Origin: Candidatus Tayloriibacteriota bacterium
Lineage (GTDB): Bacteria > Patescibacteriota > Minisyncoccia > Phycocordibacterales > UBA6065
Assembly (NCBI GenBank): GCA_016215405.1
Contig: JACRJQ010000002.1
Location: 59,597 to 123,596, forward strand
Direction of reading: 5' to 3'
DNA length: 64,000 nt
Of this stretch, positions 32,727 through 35,594 are shown piece after piece. A model generated the notes under the pieces. It saw nothing but the letters and a program-made list of their open reading frames with translations, had not been told where the DNA came from and made no database searches. Both the position numbers and the translations under genes were made by a program. How positions within the stretch are numbered: the stretch's first letter is position 1; the number at the start of each line of letters is the position of its first letter.

Positions 32727-35594
32727 CTACCCCCTGACGACGATGGAGACCAGTTTTCCTGGGACGACGATGACTTTTTCCGGTTTCTTGTCCCCTATCC
32801 ATTTTTTCACCTCGTCGAGGGACATCGCCGTCCTTTCTAGATCCCCCTTCTCGGCGTTTCTATCCGCCGCGAAGCTCGCACGGACCTTGCCGTTCACCTG
32901 CACCACGATGGTCGCGCCCCCCTCGGTCAATTTTGATTCATCTGCCACGGGCCACTGGGCCATATGGATGGAATCTTCGTTCCCCAGGGAATGCCATAGG
33001 TCTTCCGTCACGTGAGGTGCAAATGGAGCGAGAAGTTTAAGAAAAACTTCATAAGTCGCACGTGTTACAGCGGCCTCTTTTTCAAGTGCATTCGAGAGGA
33101 TCATGAGCGATGATACTGCAGTATTGAATCCCATGGACTCTATATCTCCGGTTACTTTTCCGATTGTCTTATGAAGCAAAGATTCGAGTTCTTTATTCGG
33201 TCTTAACTCTCCGCTGCTCATGACCGCCCGCGCATCAACAACTTTGTTTGATAATGCATAGATTCGCTCAATAAACCTGCGAGGGCCTATGAGGCTCTTC
33301 GTGTCCCACGATATCGCCTGGTCGAATGGTCCCATGAACATCTCATAGACGCGCAGGGTATCGGCGCCGTAATTGGTCACGAGCTCATCGGGATTTATGA
33401 CGTTGCCCTTCGATTTGGACATCTTCTCCCCTCCCTCGGCGAGGATCATGCCGTGAGACGTCCTCTTTTTATAAGGCTCGCTCGTAGGGACGATTCCGAT
33501 GTCGAAGAGGAACTTGTGCCAGAAGCGAGAGTAAAGGAGATGCAGCGTCGTGTGCTCCATACCCCCGTTGTACCAGTCGACGGGCGACCACAGAGCGAGC
33601 CTCTCTTTGCTCGCGAGCTCTTTGTTATTCTTAGGATCGGCGTAGCGCAGGTAATACCACGAAGAGCCCGCCCAATTAGGCATCGTATCGGTCTCCCTCT
33701 CTGCTTCGCCCTTGCATTTCGGGCACTTCGTCTCGACCCACGACCTTATCTCGGCCAAAGGAGACTCTCCGGTATCAGTAGGCTCGTACCTCTCCACCTT
33801 CGGCAAAGCGACAGGAAGTTCCTTCTCGGGCACAGGGACCCATCCGCACTTTCCGCATTTGACCATCGGTATAGGCTCGCCCCAGTATCTCTGGCGAGAG
33901 AACACCCAGTCGCGCAGCTTGAACTTCTTCACCCAAGCGCCGCCGACCTCCTCGGCGATCTCCCTCTTCGCTTCTTCGGAATCCATGCCGGAGAACTTTC
34001 CGGAATCGGCGAGGATGCCGTGGTCGGTATAGATATAGTCGTCACTGTCGAGGATGTTGAGGATGAAGCTGCCCTCATAGACGGTAAAGAAATCCTTGAG
34101 CTCTCCCCTCTCCTTCCACACGATCTCGTGGATCGCGGCCTCTTTGTCGTCGACTTCCTGCCTCTCTTCGTTCACAAGGTCGAAGAAGACGAATCTGAAA
34201 TGGGCGTGCCGGTTCTGCTTCTTCACCCGATGATAGAAGAAGGTGTTTATCGCGACCGAGGAGGTGCGGACGTGCTTTAAGTTCTTGTAGCCCGTCTCCT
34301 CGAGCATCTCTCGCTTCGCTGCCTCTACGATGTCCTCGCCTTTCTCGATCCCGCCGGTAAAGAGGCCGTGCATCTTGAAGCTTTTCCAGCTGTTGCAAAG
34401 ATACTTCCCATCCTTAGGATTTCTGACCACTATCGCGACCGCGTCCCGATACTCGAAGGGCATATCGGCCCTAGGGGCGCCTTCGCCGCTTATTCCGACG
34501 AATTTCGGCTCGACGACGTGCTTTACGGGAAGCCCGTACTTCTTCGCGAACGCGAAGTCGCGCTCGTCGTGAGCGGGCACGGCCATGACCGCCCCCGTGC
34601 CATATTCGCTCAAGACGTAATCGGCAACGAACACCGGCACCTCTTCGCCGTTCGCCGGATTTATCGCGAAGATCCCGTCGAGCTTAACTCCGGTCTTCTC
34701 TTTCTTGGCGTCGGTGCGCTCTATCTCGTCTTTTTTCTTTGCAGAAGCGATATATTTTTCGACTTCGGCCCTATTTTTGAAAGAGAGCTTTGAGACGAGG
34801 CCGTGCTCGGGCGCGAGGACGACGTACGTGACGCCGAAGAGCGTGTCGGGACGGGTCGTGAAGGCCCTTATCTTCTCGCTCGAGCCCTTGATCGCAAACT
34901 CGAGCTCAGCACCCTCGCTCCTGCCTATCCAATTGCGCTGCTGTATCTTTATCCTCTCGAGATAATCGACCGAATCGAGGTCGTCATAGAGCTTGTCGGC
35001 GTATTTCGTGATGGCGAGCATCCACTGCTCCTTCTCTCGCTCTTCTACCGCCGTTCCGCAGCGCTCGCAGCGGCCGTCGACGACCTCCTCGTTCGCGAGA
35101 CCGATCTTGTCTTTTGGACACCAATTGATCGCGATCTTCGCCTTGTAGGCGAGGCCTTTCTCGTACATCTTGAGGAATATCCACTGTGTCCAGCGGAAAT
35201 ATTCCGGGTCGGTCGTGTTTACCTCGCGCGACCAATCGAACGAGAGTCCGAGAGATTTGAGCTGTCTGCGGAAATTGTCCGTGTTCTCCTTGGTCACGTC
35301 CTCAGGTTGCCTGCCCGTCTTTATGGCGTAGTTCTCCGTAGGCAAGCCGAAAGCGTCCCAGCCGATGGGATAGAGGACGTTCTCGCCCTGCATACGGCGC
35401 TTTCGGGCGACGATGTCCATCGCCGTATAGCTCCTGATGTGGCCGGTATGAAGCCCTGCGCCCGAAGGGAACGGAAATTCGACCAAGGGATAGAACCTCT
35501 TCTTATCGCTCTTGTCGTCTGCCGCGTAGATGCCAGACTTCTCCCATTCTTTCTGCCACTTCTTCTCTAGCTTAGAGTGGTCGTACTTTTTCAT
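32727..35594 (-). CDS. leuS: leucine--tRNA ligase with inserted NUDIX hydrolase domain
   Basis: 955 aa; HTGH (HIGH) at aa 49-52, TTRPDT editing motif at 246-251, [24 protein letters not shown] at 333-356, [10 protein letters not shown] at 567, KMSKS at 724. Residues ~365-525 form a complete NUDIX fold with box [23 protein letters not shown]. Confidence 0.9.
   Translation of the reverse strand: [955 protein letters not shown]

Follow-up and report, generated by a model that had tools for sequence, protein, structure and literature searches.

Aminoacyl-tRNA synthetases (aaRSs) are a main source of Ap4N, and the NUDIX enzymes RppH/NudH/IalA, NUDT2 and MutT1 are its asymmetric hydrolases (PMC7705103, PMC10148737). 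In the LysRS-Ap4A-NUDT2 axis and in the control of Np4N by RppH/ApaH, Ap4N is produced by an aaRS and broken down by a NUDIX enzyme (PMC7705103, PMC10148737). The two activities reside in different proteins in these known systems, with no covalent fusion on record, and leucyl-tRNA synthetase (LeuRS) is not singled out in the two reviews as a producer of Ap4A. The editing domain of LeuRS, CP1, bears lineage-specific peripheral insertions such as I2b, I4b and I4ae; I4b is the loop between helices α2 and α3, its Thr373 lies ~4 Å from an editing-site ligand, and the archaeal/eukaryal I4ae covers the entrance to the editing pocket (PMC3747510). A bacterial class Ia synthetase with an extra enzyme domain is exemplified by IleRS with an N-acetyltransferase (NF040702, ileS_w_GNAT), which differs from the protein described here in both the synthetase and the added enzyme, and the NF040702 model matched our query weakly, via the shared synthetase core. 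To our knowledge, it is rare for an aaRS to have an unrelated, intact enzyme built into its editing domain, next to the pocket that the tRNA 3' end enters. We describe here a LeuRS, from a bacterium of the candidate phyla radiation, with a NUDIX domain at this position. A full-text literature search found no description of a LeuRS-NUDIX fusion, in agreement with an earlier note on this DNA, which knew of no published fusion of NUDIX with any aaRS.

The window, i.e., the whole stretch of 64,000 nucleotides that was analysed, contains a leuS ORF of 955 amino acids (32727..35594; this and all other features named below lie on the minus strand). Judged by its sequence, this ORF is a bona fide bacterial LeuRS. 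It scored 1002.5 bits against TIGR00396 (the leuS_bact equivalog; cutoff 548.4), in two stretches separated by the insert, and matched Thermus thermophilus (Tth) LeuRS in a phmmer search of the PDB with E=1e-226. The full-length AF2 model (pLDDT 89.8, pTM 0.80) had the LeuRS fold, with target-normalised TM scores of 0.80-0.84 to 2bte, 4aq7 and 5on2 in Foldseek. Both class I signatures are present, namely HTGH (the HIGH signature; aa 49-52, 35439..35450), in which H49, G51 and H52 were invariant among 101 sequences, and the KMSKS loop (aa 724-728, 33411..33425), conserved in the same set. The leucine-specific domain is missing just upstream of KMSKS and is replaced by a short 10-residue peptide, the alignment showing a gap of 43 residues relative to E. 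coli and ~54 relative to Tth. The LeuRS of Mycoplasma mobile reportedly lacks CP1 altogether, unlike the query, which keeps full CP1 and carries NUDIX in addition. The two enzymes are alike in that the leucine-specific domain is also missing in M. mobile, with a short peptide before KMSKS (PMC3643597). Overall, the query appears to be a fully equipped LeuRS: it has the synthetic site, the zinc module and a complete CP1 editing site, as well as the anticodon-binding and C-terminal domains, and is predicted to be capable of leucylation and editing. Its neighbours, syntenic in relatives, are a DUF5671 membrane protein gene 6 nt upstream (35601..36590), itself preceded by a promoter-like site (36620-36593), and a downstream gene for a protein with Sigma70_r4 and HARE-HTH domains (31479..32510).

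The CP1 domain is split by the insert and is of full length. The query was colinear with the E. coli and Tth enzymes up to aa 362 and again from aa 523; the alignment of residues 2-361 with E. coli LeuRS (3-360) contained 4 gap positions, and residues 1-362 aligned with Tth LeuRS 1-363. Positions 1-143 of the PF13603 profile matched aa 220-364, and the profile, broken at ~143 of its 185 positions, was picked up again past the insert. CP1 thus comprises an N-terminal part (aa 226-362, 34509..34919) and a C-terminal part consisting of the GILADSG strand and helix α3 (aa 523-560, 33915..34028), the latter corresponding to E. coli 376 onward. The threonine-rich editing motif TTRPDT (aa 246-251, 34842..34859) has T246, T247, R248, D250 and T251 invariant in 101 sequences, and in the segment of the GTG loop and AHDERD (aa 332-346, 34557..34601) the editing aspartates D343 and D346 (E. 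coli D342/D345) are likewise invariant, as are G332, G334, H342 and R345. Counted in E. coli numbering, the equivalents of T247, T248, R249, T252, D342 and D345 were unchanged in 101/101 family members, and M337 and V339 (E. coli M336, V338) were kept in 100/101. These results do not bear out the earlier note where it held that CP1 was partly deleted and followed by NUDIX: the distance from TTRPDT to GTGAVM, which it took to be 150-160 aa in E. coli, is ~85 aa in the query, E. coli and Tth alike, and the inserted domain is nested within CP1. With CP1 of full length and its editing residues invariant, there is no reduced editing module for NUDIX to compensate, and since the editing site is intact, NUDIX would add an activity rather than replace editing.

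Between P363 and G526, the query contains a segment of ~160 aa, as had been noted, where E. coli has ~15 residues (361-375) and Tth ~12 (364-375). On profile and model evidence, aa ~366-520 of this segment is a genuine NUDIX domain fused into LeuRS, and its catalytic box is canonical and conserved; the domain proper (aa 366-520, 155 aa, 34035..34499) stands in place of the I4b loop (as defined in PMC3747510). PF00293 matched aa 382-499 with E=4.8e-15 and 56.2 bits against a gathering threshold of 21.1. The Nudix box, G-x5-E-x7-R-E-U-x-E-E-x-G-U (aa 414-436), lies exactly where previously placed (34287..34355), has no second instance in any of the six reading frames of the window, and occurs in its strict pattern in 106/120 homologues. 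A chance match of the box had been a concern, but the segment adopts the NUDIX fold in the AF2 model, with a pLDDT of 93.5 when modelled alone and 91-97 within the full model; Foldseek returned 461 PDB matches at E≤1e-3 for it, and the 50 listed were all NUDIX, with probability 1.00 and TM ~0.7. The earlier description of the NUDIX domain as complete is therefore upheld. An intein or other self-splicing insertion was considered and rejected. An intein would have a Hint domain and would end in HN, followed at the downstream junction by a C/S/T nucleophile; in the query, Pfam gave no Hint/intein match, and the junctions, VVEP/KFVG and YTDH/GILAD, are without the required residues.

In the full AF2 model, helix α2 (aa 344-353) is followed by NUDIX and then by helix α3 (aa 539-549). 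As modelled, NUDIX takes the place of the variable I4b surface loop, which borders the opening of the editing pocket, and α2 carries the catalytic Asp. The insert thus occupies the same α2-α3 position near the pocket opening as I4b and I4ae, but the known I4 insertions are a loop or a helix, whereas this is an autonomous enzyme domain of 155 aa with its own active site. Its location at the pocket rim could be taken to favour the hypothesis, put forward together with that of a truncated CP1, that NUDIX hydrolyses non-cognate aminoacyl-adenylates (aa-AMP) in pre-transfer editing. NUDIX enzymes cleave pyrophosphate bonds of nucleoside diphosphate-X compounds, while aa-AMP, a nucleoside monophosphate with an acyl-phosphate, has no such bond, and hydrolysis of aminoacyl-adenylates by this domain is thus chemically unlikely. 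Although the Tth LeuRS pocket also binds pre-transfer substrate analogues (title of PDB 1obh), we regard the hypothesis as a whole as very improbable, considering also the full-length CP1 with its invariant catalytic residues and the NUDIX proteins described below, both free-standing and joined to a mini-CP1, which have no synthetase to edit for.

The NUDIX-LeuRS is a genuine protein and not an assembly chimera, a concern raised previously. GC content is uniform across the insert junctions, an identical protein is on deposit from a Candidatus Taylorbacteria contig of 186 kb, and PF00293 occurs at the same place in 119/120 of the best homologue clusters, from independent Patescibacteria assemblies, which also answers whether other LeuRS sequences carry the same insert. 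Many related uncultured bacteria thus share this conserved architecture. The insert diverges faster than the synthetase, with a mean pairwise identity of 0.42 versus 0.62-0.74, and despite this its catalytic residues are near-invariant, so that NUDIX appears to be under purifying selection: among 211 copies at the query's site, E429, E432, E433 and G435 are 99-100% conserved, and R383, K458, N461, R462, E485 and W493 are 93-100% conserved. E485 (34140..34142), a conserved acidic residue outside the box, probably represents, by analogy, the additional metal/catalytic Glu typical of NUDIX enzymes; it is found in 91-100% of copies at LeuRS sites A-C, 97% of free-standing members, and 67% of six unclassified long proteins. 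Since every catalytic residue is kept, the domain is very probably an active Mg2+-dependent hydrolase. These residues also bear on a non-catalytic role, in which NUDIX, comparable to the eukaryal I4ae, would act as a lid or as a structural module, shaping access to the pocket or adding a tRNA-binding surface. I4 is indeed a known site of lineage-specific insertions over the pocket (PMC3747510), and one sub-clade has the box substitutions E420Q and R428A/M; nonetheless, the metal-binding residues E429, E432, E433 and E485 are 94-100% conserved at the query's site, this sub-clade included, and free-standing homologues hold the same residues, which leaves the lid scarcely credible.

As to its affiliation, the query NUDIX probably belongs to a small, narrow, uncharacterised subfamily, with RppH/NudH, the Nudix Ap4A hydrolases, NudI, NudB and MutT as its nearest, though distant, relatives, all of which cleave substrates of the nucleoside tri-/tetraphosphate type. 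RppH/NudH/IalA and the Nudix Ap4A hydrolases were its closest neighbours in both sequence profile and structure. The best PDB profile match was lupin Ap4A hydrolase 1f3y (E=1.6e-7, covering only profile positions 18-82), RppH models were the commonest weak NCBIfam matches (28/32 members), and the Foldseek neighbours were RppH, the CT771 Ap4A hydrolase, NudI and 1f3y, with TM 0.63-0.70 and 16-22% identity to 1f3y and CT771. The query shares the fold, the canonical box and the flanking basic residues with E. coli RppH, Chlamydia CT771 and 1f3y, but the identity is 15-22%, the alignments are partial, the scores are far below the curated cutoffs, and the subfamily has a signature of its own, consisting of R383, K458-x2-N461-R462, E485, H489 and W493, and also an N-terminal extension; the K458-x2-N461-R462 element, downstream of the box (34209..34223), is present in 93-100% of embedded and 87-97% of free-standing copies.

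None of the curated NUDIX subfamily models in NCBIfam reached its cutoff for the query. An RppH equivalog was rejected on the best model, NF001938 (~30 bits versus a cutoff of 116), and the other RppH models (18-24 bits versus 118-259); a MutT-type 8-oxo-dGTPase on NF008044 (14 bits versus 148); and the NudE, NAD diphosphatase and YffH models on scores far below their cutoffs. The pyrophosphatases of ADP-ribose, NADH and CoA are recognised, respectively, by a Pro ~16 residues past the box, by SQPWPFPxS, and by an upstream LLTxR[SA]; aa 385-470 of the query has F at +16 and neither SQPWPFP nor LLTxR, and these were also rejected. With the best score at ~30 bits versus 116 for RppH, the assignment of a substrate is weak. 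An RNA-directed, RppH-like enzyme may nevertheless be envisaged, removing 5'-triphosphates or Np4N/NAD-type caps, possibly from tRNALeu held by LeuRS, as its acceptor end adjoins CP1. The RppH models and structures among the closest, though weak, relatives would agree with this, as would a free-standing member located two genes from RNase Y and the position of I4b, adjacent to the pocket in which the tRNA 3' end is bound (PMC3747510). Against it are the scores, far under the RppH cutoffs of 116-259, and the occurrence of the domain at several LeuRS sites and in separate genes, which argues against a tRNA substrate dependent on geometry. Moreover, tRNAs normally bear 5'-monophosphates after processing by RNase P, and we therefore consider such an enzyme improbable.

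The distribution of the subfamily was surveyed in the best 150 representatives among 1.84 billion proteins. LeuRS was the host of 105 of these 150, and no other identifiable host was found among them. The embedded copies are located at three or more distinct LeuRS sites, besides an N-terminal fusion, and those at different sites did not arise by recent duplication within the gene. The presence of NUDIX at several sites argues that it need not be placed in one exact geometry with respect to the editing pocket. Free-standing members carry identical catalytic signatures; one such gene is separated by 1 nt from a leuS, itself NUDIX-bearing, that lies downstream of it, while three of the four examined do not adjoin leuS. 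Another free-standing form, of 263-293 aa, was found in low-GC Bacillota-like genomes, in which the CP1 core is kept around NUDIX (mini-CP1+NUDIX). The T-rich motif and the GTG loop of this CP1 are lost, as are the catalytic Asp residues in most, whereas the NUDIX catalytic residues are kept; one of the genes is found beside conjugation and IS21 genes. We know of no earlier free-standing homologue of a class I CP1. The trans-editing proteins AlaX, YbaK/ProX and ThrRS-ed are similarly editing-domain homologues freed from a synthetase, but they go back to class II editing domains and retain the deacylase residues, whereas mini-CP1 derives from class I CP1, is without the T-rich motif and GTG loop, and keeps NUDIX.

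Several of these observations could be reconciled with a passenger on a permissive scaffold, i.e., an ordinary house-cleaning NUDIX, such as a MutT-like sanitiser of scavenged nucleotides, with no mechanistic link to LeuRS, that would happen to be lodged in a surface loop that tolerates it, the host gene being essential and constitutively expressed and the genome streamlined. Other loops of LeuRS in the same clade have received unrelated inserts (Ser_hydrolase/α/β-hydrolase, Ham1 ITPase and DUF559 endonuclease), and Ham1 and NUDIX are both classic nucleotide-pool sanitisers. The free-standing members with identical signatures, mostly away from leuS, point the same way, and in a close relative (P0038/P0272; 77% identity, same synteny) NUDIX has been cleanly lost, with no NUDIX gene within ±10 kb, so that LeuRS evidently works without it. 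Conversely, the absence of any other identifiable host, the recurrent placement at three or more sites by copies that are not recent duplicates, and the free-standing gene adjoining leuS speak against a mere passenger, as does the retention of a catalytically dead CP1 core in mini-CP1+NUDIX, even though NUDIX proteins without CP1 fold without it. Considering both sides, we regard the passenger as possible but less likely than not.

The reading that we moderately favour, from sequence and model, is a bifunctional LeuRS, in which NUDIX would be an active nucleoside-polyphosphate hydrolase coupled to CP1 and not a substitute for editing. NUDIX would work jointly with the CP1 scaffold and not be a chance passenger, and it would hydrolyse a nucleoside-polyphosphate compound. 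The leading candidates are dinucleoside polyphosphates (Ap4A, Ap3A, Ap4N) produced by enzymes that form aminoacyl-adenylates; a non-canonical NTP is the alternative candidate. The earlier suggestion that NUDIX may remove Ap4A/NpnN made by the synthetase is compatible with the data. A more specific and rather doubtful version holds that CP1 and NUDIX form a composite catalytic unit with a second, nucleotide-directed quality-control activity, in which CP1 would bind a nucleotide species and NUDIX at the rim would cleave it; the ligand of the CP1 pocket or surface would be adenosine- or tRNA-linked or made by LeuRS, e.g., Ap4N, adenylylated by-products or Np4-capped RNA. The partnership would then be so old and useful as to have been rebuilt at several LeuRS sites, and would have escaped as mini-CP1+NUDIX into Bacillota-like genomes.

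These findings have implications beyond the single locus. The deposited copy of the leuS product bears no more specific name than 'class I tRNA ligase family protein', and the insert may be impairing how an essential gene is annotated automatically throughout a large bacterial radiation. The I4 position controls how benzoxaborole drugs reach the editing pocket (PMC3747510), so that a domain of 155 aa there would be expected to alter inhibitor access. The mini-CP1+NUDIX proteins suggest that class I editing-domain scaffolds can be exapted outside synthetases. Lastly, if it is true that NUDIX degrades Ap4A-type products, this LeuRS would be the first physical fusion of a producer with a destroyer of these alarmones or RNA-cap precursors.

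The uninterrupted 955-amino acid leuS frame (window 32727..35594, minus strand) encodes a bona fide bacterial leucyl-tRNA synthetase (LeuRS), as it scored 1002 bits against the bacterial LeuRS equivalog TIGR00396 (cutoff 548) and matched the T. thermophilus enzyme with an E-value of 1e-226. Some plus-strand ORFs overlap this well-supported frame and were treated as non-coding. Apart from an extra domain, described below, the synthetase was found to be intact. In pairwise alignments, its residues 2-361 are colinear with residues 3-360 of E. coli LeuRS, with only four gap positions, and its residues 1-362 with residues 1-363 of the T. 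thermophilus enzyme; in each of the three enzymes, TTRPDT and GTGAVM are spaced about 85 residues apart. These alignments contradict an earlier note on this DNA, according to which the CP1 editing domain is partly deleted. In a family alignment of 101 sequences, the HxGH and KMSKS signatures were intact, the equivalents of E. coli T247, T248, R249, T252, D342 and D345 were invariant, and those of M336 and V338 were conserved in 100 of the 101. The full-length AF2 model (pLDDT 89.8, pTM 0.80) superposed on bacterial LeuRS crystal structures with TM-scores of 0.80-0.84, normalised to the target. The sole canonical element missing, by alignment to the E. coli and T. thermophilus enzymes, is the leucine-specific domain before KMSKS, in place of which lies the short sequence AEGGE (residues 719-723, window 33426-33440). 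There is precedent for this in Mycoplasma mobile LeuRS, which likewise lacks the domain and has a few residues instead (PMC3643597).

The extra domain is a genuine and conserved NUDIX domain. Pfam PF00293 matched residues 382-499 with an E-value of 4.8e-15 (56 bits, gathering score 21), and the Nudix box occupies residues 414-436 (nucleotides 34287-34355, minus strand), exactly where the earlier note had read it; a six-frame scan revealed no second such box in the window. The isolated domain was modeled by AF2 with a pLDDT of 93.5, and a Foldseek search with this model returned 461 PDB matches at E≤1e-3, of which all 50 listed are NUDIX enzymes with a probability of 1.00, the best TM-scores being about 0.6-0.7. 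Since Pfam, the AF2 models and Foldseek all identify a NUDIX domain, a chance match to the box was rejected, and the complete domain recognized in the earlier note is borne out. The insert diverges faster than the synthetase body, with a mean pairwise identity in the family of 0.42 versus 0.62-0.74. Nonetheless, among 211 copies located as in the window, E429, E432, E433 and G435 of the box are 99-100% conserved, as are, outside it, R383 (99%), K458 (100%), N461 (99%) and W493 (99%), followed by E485 (94%) and R462 (93%). Roughly one-tenth of the copies carry E420Q together with R428A/M and keep the metal-binding glutamates. A sub-clade of homologous proteins (P0075, P0087, P0098, P0100, P0107, P0108, P0114, P0117 and P0119) has a variant box, G-x5-Q with A, M, T or Q replacing the Arg before the first Glu, in which all metal-binding glutamates are present. 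The near-invariance of catalytic residues in a fast-evolving insert is a sequence pattern that indicates purifying selection on catalysis, and the NUDIX domain is probably active as an enzyme; a purely structural role for it is very improbable.

The extra segment extends from about P363 to H525; the corresponding stretch comprises about 15 residues in E. coli and about 12 in T. thermophilus. The match to the Pfam editing-domain profile is broken at profile position ~143 of 185 and continues beyond the insert; NUDIX is therefore nested within CP1 and not appended, and does not follow it as the earlier note had placed it. In the AF2 model, the helix bearing the catalytic Asp (residues 344-353) is followed by a short strand, the NUDIX domain (~366-520), a strand (526-528) and the next CP1 helix (539-549). 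In the structural study of the S. pneumoniae CP1 domain, the loop between helices α2 and α3 was defined as the bacterial insertion I4b, which is not conserved among bacteria and whose Thr373 lies about 4 Å from a ligand in the editing pocket; the archaeal/eukaryal counterpart, I4ae, covers the opening of that pocket (PMC3747510). NUDIX thus lies within a complete CP1, where I4b would be expected, and, judging from the register of our alignment with that definition, would replace this loop. The linkers between CP1 and NUDIX are very short, and a 15-residue N-terminal extension of the insert is also present in free-standing homologs, hence it is a part of the NUDIX domain and not a linker. Because CP1 is not shortened and its editing residues are invariant, there is no reduced editing module to compensate. 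One of the proposals of the earlier note, that NUDIX does so by hydrolyzing aminoacyl-adenylates before transfer, is accordingly left with hardly any likelihood.

Neither artifact nor mobile element accounts for the insert. An assembly chimera was rejected in view of the uniform GC content, which is flat over both junctions, the unbroken ORF, and the occurrence of the same architecture in independent assemblies. An intein or mobile intron was similarly rejected, since the insert is a conserved, in-frame segment without a Hint domain and its junctions are unlike those of inteins. An identical protein (P0001) has been deposited, encoded on a 186-kb contig of Candidatus Taylorbacteria, and PF00293 was found in 119 of the 120 best homolog clusters, 55-76% identical to the query and drawn from Paceibacterota, Nomurabacteria, Parcubacteria and ‘Patescibacteria group’ assemblies in NCBI, JGI, ENA and Logan. 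P0027, P0081, P0090 and P0114 are encoded on contigs of 0.5-1 Mb. NUDIX also lies inside LeuRS in nine species-representative CPR genomes, including Zambryskiibacteriota, Uhrbacteria and Falkowbacteria; this single-sequence genome scan recovered just these nine close CPR loci and generic NUDIX genes, and so under-samples the taxonomic breadth. The LeuRS-NUDIX architecture is, therefore, widespread in Patescibacteria.

The NUDIX subfamily itself is small. An exhaustive phmmer search of 1.84 billion representatives with the insert yielded only 358 matches at E≤1e-3; among the best 150 of these, 105 were embedded in LeuRS and 40 were short free-standing proteins, with no other recognizable host protein. 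Free-standing members were also seen on non-CPR-like contigs of high GC content (L088, GC 73%; L087, GC 53%), such that the subfamily extends beyond Patescibacteria; one of these members adjoins a second, divergently oriented NUDIX gene. No curated NUDIX subfamily model came near its cutoff, the best being an RppH model at ~30 bits versus 116. In a search of the PDB with the subfamily profile, the top sequence was lupin Ap4A hydrolase (1f3y; E=1.6e-7, N-terminal half only), and the structural neighbors by Foldseek were E. coli RppH, NudI, the Ap4A hydrolase CT771 of Chlamydia, and 1f3y, at 15-22% identity. On direct reading of the insert, the motifs of ADP-ribose, NADH and CoA pyrophosphatases were absent. 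Taken together, the weak curated-model scores, the distant neighbors and the absent motifs mark the subfamily as uncharacterized; by sequence and fold resemblance, it leans to enzymes that cleave nucleoside tri-/tetraphosphate-type substrates. Aminoacyl-tRNA synthetases are a main source of Ap4N, and the asymmetric Ap4N hydrolases are NUDIX enzymes, namely RppH/NudH/IalA, NUDT2 and MutT1, although neither review singles out LeuRS as a source (PMC7705103, PMC10148737). An activity directed at RNA ends is improbable. As to membership in a defense system, the only match was a weak one to the PADLOC PDC-S07 NUDIX model (16-27 bits).

A more serious alternative is that NUDIX is an unrelated passenger, i.e., a house-cleaning enzyme lodged in a tolerant loop with no mechanistic tie to LeuRS. 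In its favor, a close relative with 77% identity and identical synteny (P0038/P0272; LeuRS at L083 9969-12326) has the insert cleanly deleted. The junction left there, VIE-GESLVE-SG, does not reach the usual length of the I4b loop, and the surrounding ±10 kb contain no NUDIX gene; LeuRS thus functions without NUDIX. Moreover, of four free-standing genes examined, three lie away from leuS, and relatives of 1120-1411 amino acids bear unrelated extra inserts, namely an α/β serine hydrolase, Ham1/ITPase, a DUF559 Vsr-like endonuclease and further unassigned segments. Such additional inserts (seen in P0013, P0036, P0052, P0062, P0096, P0122, P0123 and P0133, and at loci L005 and L006, the latter encoding a 1411-residue LeuRS at 2447-6682) are in frame and at other loops, number up to four in some proteins, and also include a second or third copy of NUDIX. 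Nested domains are evidently tolerated in this LeuRS clade, and two of them, NUDIX and Ham1, are classic sanitizers of the nucleotide pool.

The following observations speak instead for a specific partnership of NUDIX with LeuRS/CP1. First, the same subfamily recurs at several sites of LeuRS: site A, the I4b position seen in the window (211 copies); site B, immediately ahead of TTRPDT in the β1-β2 hairpin (24 copies, occasionally as a tandem pair, and the sole NUDIX of some enzymes, such as P0133); site C, in the C-terminal half (4 copies); and an N-terminal fusion in one protein. Copies at different sites of one protein are not mutual nearest relatives, and thus are not recent intragenic duplications.

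Second, the gene of a free-standing subfamily member (P0164; 53-kb JGI contig) is situated 1 nt upstream of a leuS that has a NUDIX insert of its own, between this leuS and the DUF5671 gene, where the DUF5671-leuS-Sigma70_r4/HARE-HTH order is as in the window. In the latter, the neighbors of leuS are all on the minus strand, in the order YchF, DUF5671, leuS-NUDIX, Sigma70_r4/HARE-HTH, an ORF, YceG, MnmA and an ATP-cone/Mrr_cat protein, and this order recurs in relatives. A promoter-like site was found upstream of DUF5671 and none between DUF5671 and leuS, such sites being no more numerous than in shuffled sequence. The ATP-cone/Mrr_cat gene (26906-27940, minus strand) joins an ATP-cone, an Mrr_cat restriction-endonuclease domain and an AF1548-like C-terminus, and is also present in the syntenic relative L083 (17487-18323). 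Elsewhere in the window, four tRNA genes are tightly clustered at 43596-43986, three of them on the minus strand (Ala-CGC, Val-CAC, Ala-GGC) and one on the plus strand (Ala-TGC).

Third, whereas a word-indexed search with the single insert sequence yielded 4 hits and was uninformative, the corresponding profile search, which favored short proteins and hence gives no family size, found complete genes for proteins of 263-293 amino acids on long contigs of 26-27% GC (P0299, P0306, P0287, P0312/P0330 and P0325; loci L089 6001-6882, L090 5678-6559 and L091 6001-6846). Their neighbors are the Bacillota-type MecA, Coat_F and PcrA, or conjugation and IS21 genes, and we call the hosts Bacillota-like solely on this GC content and on MecA, Coat_F and PcrA. 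One such protein is colinear with query residues 304-549 (35% identity, 3 gaps), and in multiple alignment they extend over all of the CP1 core, β1 through α3, and have NUDIX in place of I4b as well. They lack the I2b helices and the GTG loop, and LMNEEL, ITNEEL, IESPEL, IKQLEY and similar sequences stand in place of TTRPDT; AHD-x-x-D is degenerate in most (AHIQEH, AHIHSH) and retained as AHDEQD in one group, while the NUDIX catalytic residues are all present. Because CP1 sequence flanks NUDIX on both sides, these proteins must, on alignment evidence, descend from a LeuRS-NUDIX gene. As judged by residue conservation, they show that NUDIX stays under selection without the synthetase, and that a catalytically dead CP1 scaffold is kept around it, even though the fold can do without CP1, as free-standing NUDIX proteins lacking it demonstrate. 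These short proteins may be the first homologs of a class I CP1 domain to occur on their own. With these points weighed, an unrelated passenger appears possible but rather doubtful.

No description of a LeuRS-NUDIX protein was found in the full-text literature, whose coverage excluded most subscription journals, so that a prior account is possible. The public records of these sequences carry generic annotation only; P0001, for instance, is a ‘class I tRNA ligase family protein’ in NCBI and not a leucine--tRNA ligase. This may be due to the insert splitting the HMM match, in which case the annotation weakness would extend across the LeuRS-NUDIX clade. On balance, we modestly favor the reading that NUDIX is an active hydrolase functionally coupled to CP1/LeuRS; it would act on substrates of the nucleoside-polyphosphate class, among which by-products of the Ap4N type are the leading candidate.
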